A stretch of DNA of 55,267 nucleotides. Source: Parcubacteria group bacterium (GTDB lineage: Bacteria; Patescibacteriota; Minisyncoccia; Phycocordibacterales; Zambryskibacteraceae). Position numbers and translations under genes: made by a program. The first letter of the stretch is position 1; each line of letters begins with the position of its first letter. Below the pieces are notes generated by a model. It was not told the DNA's origin and did not search any database. It saw only the letters and a program-made list of their open reading frames with translations. The DNA is taken from assembly GCA_046597175.1 (NCBI GenBank), contig JBKJKY010000003.1:1-55267 (forward strand), given 5' to 3'. This document shows positions 2,056-40,503 of this stretch, one piece after another.

Positions 2056-3204
2056 TTAGTAGAGGTCAATGGTTTTTTCTACCATTTGTTTTAGTGAAAA
2101 TTTTTCCTCAACGGTATGTTTAAGTGCTATTCCATACTGCTCTAGCATATCTCTACTTGCAAGCAGTTCCTGGAGCGCGTATTCAATCTGAGATATATTT
2201 CCAGCTTCTACGAGTATTCCGTTTCGTTTGTGTTCGATAGCTTCAGGAATACCACCAACCCGGCTTGCTATTACGGGGAGCGATGCGAGCCCCGCTTCGA
2301 GTGGTGCGTAGGGGAATGCTTCAGTACGAGAGGTGAGGGTGAAGATATCAAAGGCATTAAGGTACTCTGACGCATTTTCTTTGAATCCTACGAGGTGTAC
2401 CTTTTCGCTCAGATTAAGCGTTTGAATAAGTGTTTGAAGATTTTTGCCCTCCTCTCCACCGCCAATAATGACGAGTGCAGTATCAGGTACCGCTTTCACT
2501 GTGTTTGCAAACGCTCGAATAATAAAGTCGAGGCCTTTGTTCTTGTGGAGTTCTGAAATCGTACCAATCCAGAGCGCCTCTTTAAAATTCCCCAAATTAC
2601 TTCGCGCATCAGCTTTTTGTAAAAGTGGAATCGTACCAATGCCGTTATAGATGAGTGTTATTTTCTTGCTTACAAGTGGGAAGCGAGAAATTTGATCCGC
2701 TACTTTCTTTGAAACAGCAATGGTATCGTGGGAAAGTACGATGGTGAGAAAATGGAGGAAGGCAAGGATAATTTTTGAAACAATATTTCTTTTTTCATTA
2801 AACGCCCAGCCGTGCCCGGTAAATATGGCTCTGGTATAGGTGGTGGAGTAGTTCAGTATTGAACGAATATTCATAAAACGAACAGCAAGAGCTCCCAGCC
2901 CACCTGCTTTTGAACTATTGAGGTGAACTACATCAGGGTTTTCATCTTTCAGAATTTTGAGGAAGGCAATGAGTGATCGAATATCAGAAATTACACCGAT
3001 GTCACGCTTCAGACTCTCAATTCGGAGTACTCGAATTCCTTTTTCGATTAGTTTCTTTTCAAGCGTATCACCTTCGCCGAGAACAACGAGTACCTCGAAG
3101 TTATCTTTCGGAAGGTTCGTAGCTAGGTCAAAGACGTATCGTTGGGCGCCTCCAAAGTTACCCTTTGTTATAAAATATAAAATTTTTTTTGTTTTATTCT
3201 GCAT
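2056..3204 (-). CDS. glycosyltransferase family 4 (GT-B fold)
   Basis: 382 aa. C-terminal SRTEAFPYAPLEAGLASLPVIASRVGGIPEAIEHKRNGILVE is typical of the GT4 donor-binding region. The N-terminus KILYFITKGNFGG lies in a duplicated 41-bp segment. Confidence 0.85.
   Translation of the reverse strand: MQNKTKKILYFITKGNFGGAQRYVFDLATNLPKDNFEVLVVLGEGDTLEKKLIEKGIRVLRIESLKRDIGVISDIRSLIAFLKILKDENPDVVHLNSSKAGGLGALAVRFMNIRSILNYSTTYTRAIFTGHGWAFNEKRNIVSKIILAFLHFLTIVLSHDTIAVSKKVADQISRFPLVSKKITLIYNGIGTIPLLQKADARSNLGNFKEALWIGTISELHKNKGLDFIIRAFANTVKAVPDTALVIIGGGEEGKNLQTLIQTLNLSEKVHLVGFKENASEYLNAFDIFTLTSRTEAFPYAPLEAGLASLPVIASRVGGIPEAIEHKRNGILVEAGNISQIEYALQELLASRDMLEQYGIALKHTVEEKFSLKQMVEKTIDLY
3149..3189. repeat. 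41-bp direct repeat, copy 1 (encodes residues 6-19 of the current glycosyltransferase)
   Basis: cctccaaagttaccctttgttataaaatataaaattttttt is identical to 3330-3370. Confidence 0.95.
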
Positions 3205-3239
3205 AGTCTGTTTTTTTGATTGCTACAGGCTTCACGGAT

Positions 3240-3303
3240 ATTTTCTTGCTAGAAAATTCCGCGACCCCACCTCACTCGCCTGCGCTCGCTCCGGTCTTGC
3301 GCC
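3240..3303 (-). repeat. bipartite interspersed repeat, copy A (AT hairpin plus GC-rich module)
   Basis: Hairpin ATTTTCT-tgct-AGAAAAT (3240-3257) next to ccgcgaccccacctcactcgcctgcgctcgctccggtcttgcgcc. The reverse complement aligns at roughly 85% with 13684-13724. Confidence 0.8.
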
Positions 3304-3379
3304 AACGGGTCCCTTCCCGATGGCTCACACCTCCAAAGTTACCCTTTGTTATAAAATATAAAATTTTTTTCTTGTCCAT
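3272..3379 (-). pseudogene. fossil 5' end of the glycosyltransferase gene, displaced by a ~140-bp insertion
   Basis: The minus strand reads ATG GAC AAG AAA AAA ATT ..., giving MDKKKILYFITKGNFGGVSHREGTRWRKTGASAGE*. The first 17 aa match the live gene's N-terminus, then the frame runs into repeat copy A and stops. The ATG sits in a TAATATG junction with the upstream EamA stop. Confidence 0.6.
3330..3370. repeat. 41-bp direct repeat, copy 2
   Basis: Identical to 3149-3189. The two copies are separated by 140 bp that contain repeat copy A. Confidence 0.95.
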
Positions 3380-3380
3380 A

Positions 3381-3803
3381 TTATTTTATTGCAAAGAGAA
3401 TTGCTCCTGAGAGTATGAGAACTGAGCCAAGCCCCGTTTTCCAGGTAATCCCTTCACCGAGGAATAGCGCTGCGAGAATAACTACAAATACAATGCTGAG
3501 TCGATCGAGAGCAGCAACTCCTCCTGCAGGACCATTTTTTAGACTAAAGAAATAAAAGAGCCATGAGGTAGCCCCGGCAATGCCTGAGAGTGCGATGAAA
3601 AGGAAGGTTCTTCCATCAATAGAACTCAGGGTTTTGTATTTTCCGAGTGCAAGGGAAGTGAGTACAAGGAACCCAGCCATAACAACTGAACGAACAGTGG
3701 TCGCTAAGGTACTATCAACATTTTTGAGTCCAATCTTGCCGAAGATAGAGACGAGGGATGCAAAAACTGCAGAAAGTGAAGCGTAGAGTATCCAACTAGG
3801 CAT
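3381..3803 (-). CDS. small EamA/DMT-superfamily membrane transporter
   Basis: 140 aa from MPSWILY. 4-5 TM segments and a single EamA-like repeat (FGKIGLKNVDSTLATTVRS). The longer track ORF (to 3866) overlaps the upstream gene, so the shorter start is preferred. Confidence 0.6.
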   Translation of the reverse strand: MPSWILYASLSAVFASLVSIFGKIGLKNVDSTLATTVRSVVMAGFLVLTSLALGKYKTLSSIDGRTFLFIALSGIAGATSWLFYFFSLKNGPAGGVAALDRLSIVFVVILAALFLGEGITWKTGLGSVLILSGAILFAIK

Positions 3804-4284: not shown

Positions 4285-4290
4285 ATTCTA
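4285..4290 (-). promoter_or_regulatory. -10 hexamer TAGAAT, 6 nt upstream of the ATG at 4278 (leaderless-type promoter)
   Basis: The minus strand reads cgcggTAGAATgaaggaATG. Confidence 0.5.
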
Positions 4291-4293
4291 CCG

Positions 4294-4331
4294 CGTGATT
4301 TTACTCATGGCTAGCAATGAGTAAAATCACG
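4294..4331. promoter_or_regulatory. 38-bp near-perfect palindrome (candidate operator) abutting the -10 box
   Basis: cgtgattttactcat (4294-4308) and atgagtaaaatcacg (4317-4331) are perfect 15-bp inverted arms around ggctagca. Confidence 0.55.
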
Positions 4332-11022: not shown

Positions 11023-11261
11023 CTTGTTACATAAAAAATTTGAGAACGCCTAAGGTTTTAAAGACACCTTAGGCTAGCAAGTCTCAAGAATTCTAATAAT
11101 GTGATTCCTTTCCGCTACATGCACCTTCGGTGGTGAACGTACAAGCAATACGGTGTAGTTGGAAGAAGTGAGTTAGAAATCAAATTCTTAACCGGATCAA
11201 ACCGAAGTCTAATATTCTTTGTTTTGTTCCGTTCCAAATGAAATGTTCAAACACATCATTT

Positions 11262-12724
<1,463 letters not shown>

Positions 12725-12997: not shown

Positions 12998-13439
12998 ACC
13001 GTAACACTCACGAATACTCGGAGGAGAGATGAAGCGTCATTTGCTTTTGTCGATCGCGGGGTTGAAGCGTGTGGTGTGTCTGCTCTTTGTATCAACGGGT
13101 ATCCTGGAGGTGAACGTCCGGTATGGTTCACACCGTGCGGGATTCCCAATTTCGCTCGAACCGAAGAAGGTAGAGCTGTGCTGGTTGATGCGCCCTGGCG
13201 ATGCAGTTTGCGCGCTGGTGCTCTCAGCCCAGCTCTACTTCATTCTTTCAATTGTCTTCGTAAACGCTGGTCACTCAAACGATTTCTTTGATTGGCCGGT
13301 CAAAATGATGGTGCAGTTGCAGGGCCAGCTTCGAGGTTGGCGGTAGGGTAGTTGAGCGGAGTTAGCGAAGTGAGTGGTATCAGCAGTTTGCTGGGCCAGA
13401 GCTGGGGTCGGACAGAACATGTCCGGCCCCTTTCTATTT
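12998..13439 (+). ncRNA. promoter-to-terminator unit of unknown nature: GC-enriched structured RNA, or an atypical 105-aa ORF (13029-13346)
   Basis: Bounded by the 12964 promoter and the 13404 terminator. GC content and third-codon-position G/C bias differ from neighbouring genes. Long-range stem TAGAGCTG (13171-78) with CAGCTCTA (13230-37), plus many local hairpins. Confidence 0.3.
13404..13439 (+). terminator. intrinsic terminator
   Basis: ggggtcggac-agaacat-gtccggcccc (10 bp) followed by tttctattt. Confidence 0.75.
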
Positions 13440-13459: not shown

Positions 13460-13545
13460 CTCAGACTAGTCGCTTGTGACTAGTGGCCAGAAACTAGTAG
13501 AACGCGCGTAACTGTTTTGGTAGGTATAAAGGTAGAAAAAGTAAT

Positions 13546-13569
13546 GCGCGTGTAGCTCAGCTGATAGAG
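13546..13569 (+). pseudogene. tRNA-Ile 5' fragment (acceptor strand plus D-arm only)
   Basis: gcgcgtgtagctcagctgatagag matches 13826-13849 of the intact tRNA at 23 of 24 positions. It continues into a non-tRNA hairpin (gaccggg-atgaga-cccggtc). Confidence 0.7.
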
Positions 13570-13592
13570 TGAGACCGGGATGAGACCCGGTC

Positions 13593-13653
13593 GCAAGGTC
13601 GGAATCTGTGGAGGCAGATGAGACTGGGTCGCAGAAAATTTCAACAGAAATTT
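13593..13653 (+). repeat. bipartite interspersed repeat, copy D (most diverged)
   Basis: gcaaggtcggaatctgtggaggcagatgagactgggtcgcag followed by hairpin AAATTTC-aaca-GAAATTT. Confidence 0.6.
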
Positions 13654-13683
13654 ATTTGTGACAGAGAGTGCTGGGATACTTGT

Positions 13684-13745
13684 GCAAGGCCGGACCGAGC
13701 GAAGGCGAGGGAGGTGGGGTCGCGACTTTTCTCAGCAGAGAAAAA
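13684..13745 (+). repeat. bipartite interspersed repeat, copy B
   Basis: gcaaggccggaccgagcgaaggcgagggaggtggggtcgcg followed by hairpin TTTTCTC-agca-GAGAAAA. Confidence 0.8.
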
Positions 13746-13782
13746 GTTGTGATAGCGACTGACTTCTTATAGGGGCGGTTCG

Positions 13783-13936
13783 TTTTTTAGATTCTTTTCG
13801 ATAATTTCATTGTAATTTGTTTAGTGCGCGTGTAGCTCAGCTGGTAGAGCAATCGACTGATACTCGGTAGGTCCCAGGTTCGAACCCTGGCACGCGCACT
13901 AAGCACGGTACAAATTATCGAAAAGAATCTAAAAGA
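13783..13936. repeat. 25-bp inverted repeat pair (13783-13807 and 13912-13936) enclosing tRNA-Ile
   Basis: agattcttttcgataattt and aaattatcgaaaagaatct are a perfect 19-bp pair, extended by T/A pairs. The acceptor stem is also extended by 5 bp (ttagt/actaa). Confidence 0.85.
13826..13898 (+). tRNA. tRNA-Ile (anticodon GAU)
   Basis: Manual cloverleaf: acceptor GCGCGTG/CACGCGC, D-arm GCTC-AGCTGGTA-GAGC, anticodon arm ATCGA-CTGATAC-TCGGT, T-arm CCAGG-TTCGAAC-CCTGG, discriminator A. No CCA is encoded. Confidence 0.9.
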
Positions 13937-14056
13937 TTTTGTTGAAGCTATATTTTCCCGTCTGTATCACGGATAAAACTTTGCTAAGTTTTTCCGCGAT
14001 TCTTACAGAATCTGTACACCTTTCACATTTTGATTACAAAACGTTCAAGGTCTTGC

Positions 14057-14118
14057 AAAAACTCAAGGTGTTCGTTTTTTCACCCACCTCGGCTCGTCAG
14101 CCTCCGGTCTTGCAGAGC
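14057..14118 (-). repeat. bipartite interspersed repeat, copy C (partial GC module)
   Basis: Hairpin AAAAAC...GTTTTT followed by cacccacctcggctcgtcagcctccggtcttgcagagc. It shares ccacctc...ctccggtcttgc with copy A. Confidence 0.6.
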
Positions 14119-14136
14119 TCCAGGTATTCGCTCTTC

Positions 14137-14164
14137 ACTCGGTAGGTCCCAGGTTCGAACCCTG
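14137..14164 (+). pseudogene. tRNA-Ile 3' fragment (anticodon 3' stem, variable loop, T-arm)
   Basis: actcggtaggtcccaggttcgaaccctg is 28 of 28 identical to 13862-13889. The acceptor 3' strand is not conserved. Followed by a long hairpin and a second T-arm-like cagggttcgaagcctg (14190-14205). Confidence 0.75.
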
Positions 14165-14352
14165 AACGTAAACCGTGGGACGGTCTACGTTCAGGGTTCG
14201 AAGCCTGTTTGACTATTTTTCTAAGCTTTAAAAAAGCGACAGAAAAATCCAAACAGGGTACTGATTCTGTAAGAATCGAACTGACCAGATAAAGCTCTCT
14301 CCCAGCCCTCCAATTTCTTGCTATACTATGGACACACTAATAATTATTATTT

Positions 14353-39844: not shown

Positions 39845-39857
39845 ACGAAATACGAAA
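39845..39857 (+). repeat. ACGAAATACGAAA direct repeat, left copy
   Basis: Same 13-mer as within 40268-40288. Confidence 0.7.
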
Positions 39858-39908
39858 CTCGAAATACTGATTACGAAAAACAGATAATGAAATTCAAACA
39901 GGAAGAAC

Positions 39909-40267: not shown

Positions 40268-40288
40268 ACGAAATACGAAATACGAAAT
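40268..40288 (+). repeat. tandem heptamer (ACGAAAT x3) containing the right copy of ACGAAATACGAAA
   Basis: acgaaatacgaaatacgaaat. Confidence 0.8.
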
Positions 40289-40407
40289 TTAAAATACAAA
40301 CAAAGGTACATGCAGATTTTAAATTTTCTTATTCTTACACTAATGAGCGAAAAGTATTTCCATGAGACTGCGCAGATGGAAAATCGTATAAGCATCTACA
40401 CTAATGA

Positions 40408-40503
40408 GCGAGAATTATTTTTCAAAGACTTGTGAGTTTGTCGAAACGAGCACGAGGAATTTTTTAGCAAAAAAATATCCGTGCTTTGAAAAATAATTCT
40501 CGC
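40408..40503. repeat. perfect 20-bp inverted repeat separated by 56 nt
   Basis: gcgagaattatttttcaaag (40408-27) and ctttgaaaaataattctcgc (40484-503). The left arm overlaps a 15-bp direct repeat, tacactaatgagcga (40336 and 40396). Confidence 0.85.

Follow-up and report, generated by a model that had tools for sequence, protein, structure and literature searches.

How does a gene come to possess two copies of its own 5' end, only one of which still leads into the enzyme that it encodes? The question arises in a 55,267-nucleotide stretch of DNA from a Parcubacteria group bacterium (contig JBKJKY010000003.1 of assembly GCA_046597175.1, positions 1 to 55,267; hereafter the window), where the start of a GT4 glycosyltransferase (GT) gene stands on either side of 140 bp of additional DNA. 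The original prediction, made from the letters alone, held that an insertion with a 41-bp duplication had rebuilt the start of this gene, left the old start codon as a fossil and supplied a new one. We find that the 140 bp belong to a family built around a strongly conserved, previously undescribed three-hairpin RNA or single-stranded DNA structure, here called E, and that the hallmark of this family is the regeneration of the gene end that E interrupts. The interval 3190-3329 probably represents a small mobile element, non-autonomous and recently inserted, that consists of the E core and an A-rich tail and came with a duplication of its target.

The duplicated start of the glycosyltransferase gene

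The locus is made up of the following features, given in minus-strand order.

3381-3803, minus strand: EamA-family gene, the upstream operon partner of the GT gene (140 aa, ATG at 3803)
3272-3379, minus strand: fossil open reading frame (ORF), MDKKKILYFITKGNFGGVSHREGTRWRKTGASAGE, of 35 codons, from ATG 3377-3379 to TGA 3272-3274 in hairpin H2 of E
3328-3370, minus strand: upstream copy of the duplicated segment (U), with the exact 41-mer at 3330-3370, continuous with the original start codon
3231-3327, minus strand: element E, 97 nt (covariance-model match at 3230-3330, minus strand, 89.5 bits, E-value 2.8e-18)
3190-3230, minus strand: A-rich insert tail of 41 nt (GCCTGTAGCAATCAAAAAAACAGACTATGCAGAATAAAACA), with the new start ATG 3202-3204, the codons for QNKT, and TAG at 3223-3225
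3147-3189, minus strand: downstream copy of the duplicated gene 5' end (D), with the exact 41-mer at 3149-3189, covering live-gene codons 6-19
2056-3204, minus strand: live GT4 glycosyltransferase gene (382 aa, MQNKTKKILYFITKGNFGGAQRY..., starting MQNKTKKILYF; from the ORF list)

A repeat search recovered the claimed duplication as identical 41-mers at 3149-3189 and 3330-3370 (100% identity, 181 bases from start to start, 140 bp between them), and by our own arithmetic the chance expectation for an exact repeat of this length in 55 kb is ~1e-15. Read on the minus strand, both copies are AAAAAAATTTTATATTTTATAACAAAGGGTAACTTTGGAGG, coding for KKILYFITKGNFGG, and the order along that strand is TAATATG, GACAAG, the first 41-mer (3370 to 3330), the 140 bp, the second 41-mer (3189 to 3149) and CGCCCAACG. 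Lengthening the repeat by two bases gives 42/43 matches between 3328-3370 and 3147-3189, the mismatch being T at 3329 and C at 3148, and this reading places the insertion point after GGNGGCG, as in two other lineages (loci L025 and L154). The covariance-model match comprises E together with the flanking bases 3328-3330 and 3230.

The reading frames are likewise as described in the original prediction. The EamA stop overlaps the fossil start in TAATATG, and the fossil ORF that begins there encodes MDKKKILYFITKGNFGG-VSHREGTRWRKTGASAGE, of which MDKKKILYFITKGNFGG derives from the original start and the remainder from reading into E as far as the TGA. Its N-terminus is identical to that used by the orthologues P0002 and P0003; as a query for protein searches the 35-aa product is too short, and a read-through version gave no match. 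The live gene has the Pfam domains Glycos_transf_1 and Glyco_transf_4, and its homologues in Patescibacteria number thousands. Its frame contains the TAG at 3223-3225 and no ATG, GTG or TTG between this stop and 3204, so that the ATG at 3204, located in inserted DNA as had been claimed, is the sole possible start. The tail is 51% A and ends in AAAACA, followed directly by the run of seven A residues with which D opens.

Independent data agree with the assembly at this site. Logan contigs from a soil-metagenome run (X1) cover both junctions (3160-3266 and 3244-3359), and the X1 unitig depth of the 41-mer is 44, compared with 22.8 and 25 in the flanks, which indicates two copies per genome. Both junctions and the doubled depth of the 41-mer in an independent assembly therefore show that the structure is real. 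The insert unitigs have a depth of 16-17 against 23-25 in the flanks, and the 41-mer a depth of 44 rather than ~48; this deficit hints that 15-30% of cells are without the insert.

Uninterrupted orthologous loci

Comparison with orthologous loci lacking the insert, as the original prediction had suggested, identified an uninterrupted site within the same gene order in five of them (L001, L002, L155, L156/157 and L158/159). The nearest GT orthologues are P0002 at L001 (79% amino-acid identity) and P0003 at L002 (76%), and at both loci the gene begins with MDKKKILYFITKGNFGGAQRY, its start overlapping the EamA stop in TAATATG. The order Bac_transf, 160-aa gene, EamA, GT, FtsW and VWA is the same there as in the window, and 140-aa EamA orthologues occupy this position at L001, L002, L154 and L156. 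In a DNA alignment (A1) the sequence ...AAATAATATGGACAAGAAAAAAATT...GGNGGCGCCCA... is unbroken in both orthologues, and the window has exactly 181 bases more. Five syntenic empty sites and 181 extra bases thus identify the window allele as derived, by insertion plus target duplication. A plain tandem duplication unrelated to any repeat family, which the original prediction had named as one case that would speak against it, is not what is seen: the 140 bp belong to the E family, and the covariance model for E has 0 matches in the five empty-site loci.

U matches D at 41/41 positions (42/43 in the longer reading), while the gene as a whole is only 74% identical in nucleotides to its nearest orthologue, at L001. 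Because of this identity, and because U still codes for the exact N-terminus of P0002 and P0003, the insertion appears to be recent. There is no recombination mosaic in the window GT, L001 being the closest relative over the whole gene, and the close GT homologues that bear taxonomic names are all Patescibacteria, Parcubacteria or Paceibacterota.

Structure and distribution of E

An alignment of 27 copies gives the consensus TGAG-H1-GCAAG-H2-GGG-H3-GTGAC with a length of 93-99 nt and three hairpins; the window copy ends in GTGAA and has a GC content of 0.59 compared with ~0.40 in its flanks. H2 consists of 3 bp, an internal loop, 6 bp with tandem G.A and a tetraloop. H3 is a 15-bp hairpin with the loop AGCA and an invariant GUCGC/GUGAC pairing that includes a G.U pair, and in all copies it has a bulged A (column 94) 8 nt before C102. 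Pairing holds for 96.9% of all cells in the proposed pairs, but for 34-47% after the partners have been slid; double compensatory changes occur in 19/29 pairs, and the covariation score is 0.576 compared with at most 0.136 in the slid controls. The G.U pairs imply that the strand running from GTGAG to GTGAC is the meaningful one, be it in RNA or in single-stranded DNA. E has UGAG at its 5' end, and the base before it varies with the target; since all three bases preceding TGAG follow the target (GGG, GAG, GTG, GCG, TGG), E proper extends from 3327 to 3231.

No family in Rfam 15 matched E, only 16S rRNA and tRNA exceeding the gathering thresholds in the window, and a permissive cmscan (E<=10) of 3100-3420 in the window and 330-500 in L016 returned nothing credible, including for the group II domain V-VI model and self-cleaving ribozymes. 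A description of such an element was not found in the literature, which is weak evidence of absence. Viral contigs gave no match, leaving a phage origin unsupported.

A 40-nt pattern from the E core matched 31 stretches among 185,579 species genomes. Most are titled Kaiserbacteria, Paceibacterota or Minisyncoccia, or are metagenome-assembled genomes labelled Saccharibacteria, and all are titled or inferred to be Patescibacteria, two of them having uninformative titles ('bacterium' and 'uncultured bacterium'). Some of these labels look unreliable, given that L011 is nearly identical to a Parcubacteria contig. The covariance model gives 45 matches in 37 related loci, where as many as 4 fall within 2.4-8 kb, and it recognises six copies in the window. 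At least 4 copies lie in the 680-kb CPR genome VMEP01000001.1. E appears, on this evidence, to be a high-copy element specific to the Candidate Phyla Radiation (CPR).

The family is modular. H3 modules (hairpin plus GTGAC) also occur alone and in tandem, and the k-mer depth of 3218-3291, the H3 part of E, is 5-12 times genome depth, and it is also high in a further run, X4; as X4 is without this organism, near-identical H3 modules must be common to many organisms of that soil. One subfamily (L018, L019, L020, L026, L033 and L007) carries an extra conserved 5' module (CGGAG-hairpin-CGAG-NC) before GGGTGAG, and further H3-like hairpin modules after GTGAC. The short E of the window may have arisen by reduction from a longer, modular form. 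A metagenome scan with the junction pattern AAYTTYGGNGGNGTGAGCC proved too unspecific for use, none of its matches in the collected loci having an E core downstream.

Recurrence of gene fragment, E and intact gene

A duplicate of the flanking gene accompanies E at about 20 of the approximately 50 copies examined. The outcome that the original prediction called unusual is therefore no one-off, but a recurrent signature of the family. In GT4 genes, E stands at the identical point (after GGNGGCG) in L025 and in L154, whose glycosyltransferase, P0004, is a syntenic orthologue with 62% identity; at both loci the EamA stop has kept the original start, and past a tail there is a new ATG. The tails of the three GT4 inserts (window, L154 and L025) have no significant homology to one another (p 0.22-0.84), and on this ground we make no claim that the family brings the new start codon with it. 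At L154, U has three second-position changes and E a deletion in H2, which marks this upstream copy as a true fossil.

Other targets repeat the arrangement. In GH1 genes (L003, L006 and L028), E follows the codons for F-P-x-G-F-x-W-G and is itself followed by a second copy of these codons; the L028 copy is of a different subtype, so the GH1 site was hit at least twice independently. The tRNA targets comprise tRNA-Gln, -Glu, -Ala, -Ile and -Leu, at L008, L010, L014, L020, L026, L029, L032 and in the window, amounting to at least nine tRNA genes. The truncated tRNA copy is interrupted by E in its D-loop (after TAGAG), variable loop or T-loop; the intact tRNA stands upstream or downstream of that copy, and both strands are represented. 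In L004 the target is a 5S rRNA gene, to which E is antisense. A sense-only orientation, which would have suggested insertion at the RNA level, is ruled out by the copies antisense to tRNA-Ile and 5S rRNA. Duplication lengths across the family are 19, 28, 41-43 and 57 bp and longer, with none at L013, and D begins at an A-run in the window GT and in L154, L028 and L014.

Three loci deserve separate mention. In L013 (JBAQPT010000066.1), E lies in frame at 1487-1583 on the minus strand, contributing 93 nt, or 31 codons without a stop, and has no flanking duplicate; the ORF is ATP-citrate-lyase/citrate-synthase-like, with 39 residues in a surface loop where the homologue in the Protein Data Bank has 11. 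In L010, the broken upstream copy of tRNA-Glu has the anticodon loop TTTTGGA, compared with TTCTCAA in the intact gene, and so differs precisely in the anticodon. In L025, the public gene call for protein P0023 (414 aa, MGRDPLAQGRSERRRV...) begins inside E, an annotation error caused by the insert.

Other copies of E in the window

The original prediction described the 140 bp as carrying a copy of a repeat family, and relatives of E are indeed present elsewhere in the window, near tRNA-Ile and at 40.4 kb.

13542-13569, plus strand: 5' fragment of tRNA-Ile, adjoining an E copy (leader and positions 1-24, ending TAGAG)
13567-13663, plus strand: E copy B1 (90.5 bits, E-value 1.7e-18)
13666-13754, plus strand: E copy B2, with H1 degenerate (76.9 bits, E-value 1.7e-15)
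13826-13899, plus strand: intact tRNA-Ile(GAU) (ARAGORN; Rfam tRNA, 71 bits)
13965-14046 and 14053-14140, minus strand: two degenerate E copies (30.9 and 32.1 bits, E-value ~2e-5)
14137-14164, plus strand: internal tRNA-Ile fragment, 28/28 identical to 13862-13889, abutting the 5' end of a minus-strand E
40406-40486, plus strand: degenerate E with only the H3 module well kept (24.4 bits, E-value 8e-4), in the loop of a long inverted repeat

The tRNA-Ile fragment at 13542-13569 is the tRNA counterpart of the fossil start of the GT gene. An empty-site allele is available here as well: in X1 contig 3, from a co-occurring strain, the homologous upstream flank is joined to an uninterrupted tRNA.

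The intact tRNA-Ile gene is enclosed by a near-perfect inverted repeat of 23 nt (13785-13807/13912-13934, 100% complementary) with an extension at 13810-13832/13891-13913, and the sequence preceding the rebuilt tRNA is an inverted copy of its own downstream flank. The inverted repeat could be a fold-back or template-switch scar, or alternatively a processing stem. A 23-nt palindrome (96% complementary, 3-nt loop) occupies 14154-14202, directly next to the E copies on the minus strand, and pairs the T-arm of the tRNA fragment with an inverted copy of that arm. The 16S rRNA gene lies at 11261-12724 and tRNA-Ile ~1.1 kb further on, with a GC-rich and possibly structured stretch at 13040-13430; no tRNA-Ala or 23S rRNA is present in the remaining 41 kb, so that the rRNA genes appear to be unlinked. 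Upstream of the degenerate E at 40.4 kb, runs of the heptamer ACGAAAT (ACGAAATACGAAAT...) at 39845-39894 and 40268-40303 flank a terminator-like hairpin, and a direct repeat, CTACACTAATGAGCGA, is found at ~40338 and ~40398.

Expression of the interrupted gene

The original prediction also held that the element had uncoupled the GT gene from the upstream operon. The sequence supports this for translational coupling only: the only promoter-like (sigma-70-like) sites lie upstream of the operon, at 4285-4325, and the insert has no sigma-70-like promoter at consensus level, so that co-transcription is still the default. From the sequence, the GT gene is probably transcribed from the operon promoter region at 4285-4325, through E; among RNA-sequencing runs, none was found to contain the locus. 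Ribosomes starting at the original ATG would meet the TGA in H2 after 35 codons, and translation of the enzyme would proceed by independent initiation or re-initiation at ATG 3204, uncoupled from EamA; no obvious Shine-Dalgarno sequence precedes this codon. The predicted enzyme differs from its orthologues only in the first residues, where MQNKT replaces MDK, and N-termini in this GT family are naturally variable.

Origin of the duplication

How was the second copy of the gene end made? For the window, we tentatively favour a duplication produced at insertion, either at a staggered break or by target priming, while holding this step less firmly than the insertion as such. The element would have entered codon 18 of the GT4 gene, directly after GGAGGCG, and breaks in the two DNA strands ~43 bp apart would have led to duplication of the 41-43 bp of target just upstream of the insertion point. 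Microhomology would have joined the 5' end of E at a G-run, and the A-rich 3' tail would have joined at the A/T run that opens the duplicated block, a geometry like that of target-primed (LINE/SINE-like; long and short interspersed nuclear elements) insertion, with its long and variable target duplications. This is the simplest account of the window because the copies are perfect, E abuts U, the tail abuts D, D opens with seven A residues and the other junction falls in a G-run. Across the family, the variable duplication lengths, the target-dependent bases before TGAG and the A-run starts support breakage and microhomology. Only insertions that leave an intact copy would survive, since CPR genomes carry these genes as single copies, and the long direct repeats would allow scarless loss of the insert.

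A more ambitious proposal, which we consider doubtful, is that E is a small structured RNA reverse-transcribed in trans into staggered breaks, that is, a bacterial counterpart of SINEs. Bolder again would be to read its group-II-like ends as those of a miniature intron that is processed in trans.

Several observations weigh against an insertion that duplicates its target in this way. The A-run boundary is absent at the window tRNA-Ile and at L032, and in L014, L008 and L032 the broken tRNA continues for 12-20 nt past E, which a plain target-site duplication predicts only if flanking sequence was co-mobilised. Within 3.5 kb of E at the 31 loci there is no recurrent gene for a reverse transcriptase, transposase or recombinase, and none is evident in the window. 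The stand-alone H3 copies are discrete units and not random 5' truncations, and such truncation is accordingly ruled out as support for retrotransposition. Of the differences between U and D in L025, L003, L006 and L028, 21/25 lie in third codon positions, and 17 synonymous against 4 non-synonymous codons depart from neutral decay of U (P ~1e-4). At these four loci U must therefore have been a working gene start for most of its history. Such a pattern could reflect import of a foreign gene end, repeated recombination with empty alleles, or frequent scarless loss and regain. A target-site duplication, with which the original prediction compared the repeat, is one of several possible routes to the two copies, and a simple, decaying one leaves the synonymous bias at these other loci unexplained.

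The main rival, which we nevertheless regard as unlikely, is that E moves together with a piece of its last host gene and integrates by a crossover within a homologous coding stretch. The synonymous bias speaks for it, since it looks like a comparison of two working alleles. The vehicle would be a small circle (gene piece, E and tail) or taken-up linear DNA with one homologous arm, integrating in Campbell-type or homology-facilitated fashion, so that the 5' end already present would stay on the upstream side of E and one from the donor, with its own start, would come to lie downstream. Under this scheme the 22 identical nucleotides next to E in L025 are a possible crossover zone, the occurrence of intact copies either downstream or upstream of E would fit, and so would a D that begins differently yet typically for the family (the window has MQNKT and L154 MSNRS, P0006 and P0008 have MNPSK/MNQSK). 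It would also fit the presence of the same E subtype (GTGAGCC...GTGAAGCC) at the same site in GT4 genes of distant lineages. The window itself argues the other way: U and D match at 41/41 positions and share four synonymous differences from L001, which would call for a donor of the same species that nonetheless had another N-terminus, and the gene is no mosaic. The tails of the three GT4 inserts, moreover, are not detectably homologous, recombination over 20-40 nt between arms of 80% identity is, as a matter of general knowledge, inefficient, and the arrival of E in a new gene is left unexplained.

It is improbable that selection alone produced the pattern, with E inserting without any duplication and, in indispensable genes, the sole survivors being cells in which a spontaneous tandem duplication of the locus had occurred, the broken copy later eroding. 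Simple in-frame insertion without duplication does exist (L013), the 0-20 nt of target retained after E vary as erosion would have it, and tRNA fragments and palindromic scars surround tRNA-Ile. Several independent steps would, however, be needed for E and its tail to abut a perfect 41-mer and an in-frame ATG; the identical 28- and 41-nt repeats are young events that leave no time for erosion; and the pattern is found at ~20 of ~50 copies.

More improbable still is that E is mainly an RNA device of use to the host, with U and D both in use and under selection. It might then act as a reversible switch, as a place of processing or cleavage, or as an intron-like RNA that is excised in trans. Conservation is far higher in E than around it: the E copies of L003 and L006 are 94% identical, with their changes in loops, while the adjoining GH1 codons are ~80% identical; junction nucleotides are invariant across phyla; whether L003 is compared with L006 or a single locus is considered, U changes in the manner of a coding sequence; most E copies point the same way as the gene downstream; and the 3' hairpin with its bulged A 8 nt before the end, together with the 5' (G)UGAG, has a group-II-like look that we treat as a lead only. 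Against such a function, the tRNA copies upstream of E are truncated and non-functional, U and E have decayed in L154 beside an intact gene, E is antisense to tRNA-Ile and 5S rRNA, the Rfam comparison gave no match (group II domain V-VI and self-cleaving ribozymes included), and no mechanism is known that could position a 3' splice or landing site where D ends.

That a chimeric join in assembly or amplification created the repeat is next to impossible, for although CPR bins are often fragmentary and the junctions near tRNA-Ile are palindromic, the independent X1 k-mer assembly gives both junctions with the 41-mer at double depth, and the same architecture occurs in the unrelated assemblies of L025 and L154.

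Significance

We return, then, to a probable recent insertion of E and its tail with a duplicated target. The genomes of CPR/Patescibacteria are tiny, and genes for tRNA, 5S rRNA and many enzymes occur in them only once; E shows a route by which selfish DNA can persist where nearly every insertion should be lethal. The predicted consequences include new protein N-termini, broken translational coupling in operons and translated fossil starts. E also misleads annotation, through pseudo-tRNA fragments and gene calls such as that for P0023. Through its long direct repeats the insertion can be reversed precisely, so that the filled and the empty state of a site may serve as strain markers, and identifying the protein that binds or moves E could uncover new insertion chemistry. 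If the SINE-like interpretation were true, E would be the first bacterial retroposon-like element with long target duplications to be described, one that colonises single-copy essential genes (tRNA, 5S rRNA, cell-wall enzymes) of ultrasmall CPR bacteria by regenerating the gene end that it interrupts.

Comparison with known systems

Integrative elements such as phages, integrative and conjugative elements (ICEs) and cis-mobilisable elements (CIMEs) enter the end of a tRNA or protein gene and bring a replacement for that end in their attachment site (attP). They resemble E in that the target gene remains intact, a partial gene copy stands at the other end of the insert and tRNA genes are preferred; a gene end derived from the donor would also explain the synonymous differences between U and D. 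They differ in being kilobases long, in encoding an integrase, in usually replacing the 3' end and in having a fixed attachment (att) core. The window insert is 140 bp without a gene, and the length and sequence of the repeat change with the target, in place of an integrase-type fixed core.

Some traits of E recall group II introns, as a lead only: its 5' (G)UGAG looks like GUGYG, its last hairpin has a bulged A at a distance of 8 nt from the terminal ...AC, a 3-nt linker separates the last two hairpins, and it enters structured RNA genes as well as coding genes. E is, in contrast, 97 nt long compared with at least 400, has no domain I and no ORF, and takes its first G from the target; the Rfam model Intron_gpII (RF00029) had no match in the permissive cmscan of the window and L016 intervals described above. 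The need of the interrupted genes for a duplicate in order to survive E argues against efficient splicing.

Closer in scale are the high-copy folded repeats of ~100 nt found in small genomes, among them Rickettsia palindromic elements (RPE), Correia elements, bacterial interspersed mosaic elements (BIME) and repeats resembling miniature inverted-repeat transposable elements (MITE) or repetitive extragenic palindromes (REP). Like RPE-type repeats, E occurs in frame within protein genes (L013) and in RNA genes without killing them; it differs in having no sequence relation to them, no terminal inverted repeats and no short fixed target-site duplication. Its two ends, TGAG... and ...GTGAC, do not form a reverse-complementary pair (alignment A2), and duplications of a short fixed length of 2-10 bp, as expected of a MITE, are not seen. 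The H3 module, alone and in tandem, recalls REPs mobilised by REP-associated tyrosine transposases (RAYT), for which insertion within genes is atypical. To our knowledge, the rebuilding of gene ends by long duplication is not a described feature of the RPE, MITE or REP-like families.

The last comparison is with SINEs and other retroposons lacking long terminal repeats (non-LTR), a class that is not known from bacteria. E departs from them in having no partner reverse transcriptase (none within 3.5 kb of the 31 loci and none evident in the window), in duplications of 19-57 bp, at the long end of the range, and in shortened copies that are discrete modules. In common with SINEs, it is small, non-coding and structured, its inserts are flanked by target duplications of variable and sometimes considerable length, the 5' junction is blurred by microhomology and flanking sequence is sometimes carried along. 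An A-rich 3' tail next to the downstream duplicate is a partial parallel: the GT insert of the window has one, and A-runs mark the boundary in L154, L028 and L014, but not at the window tRNA-Ile or L032. The conserved 3' hairpin of E could, by the same analogy, be the recognition site of a polymerase.

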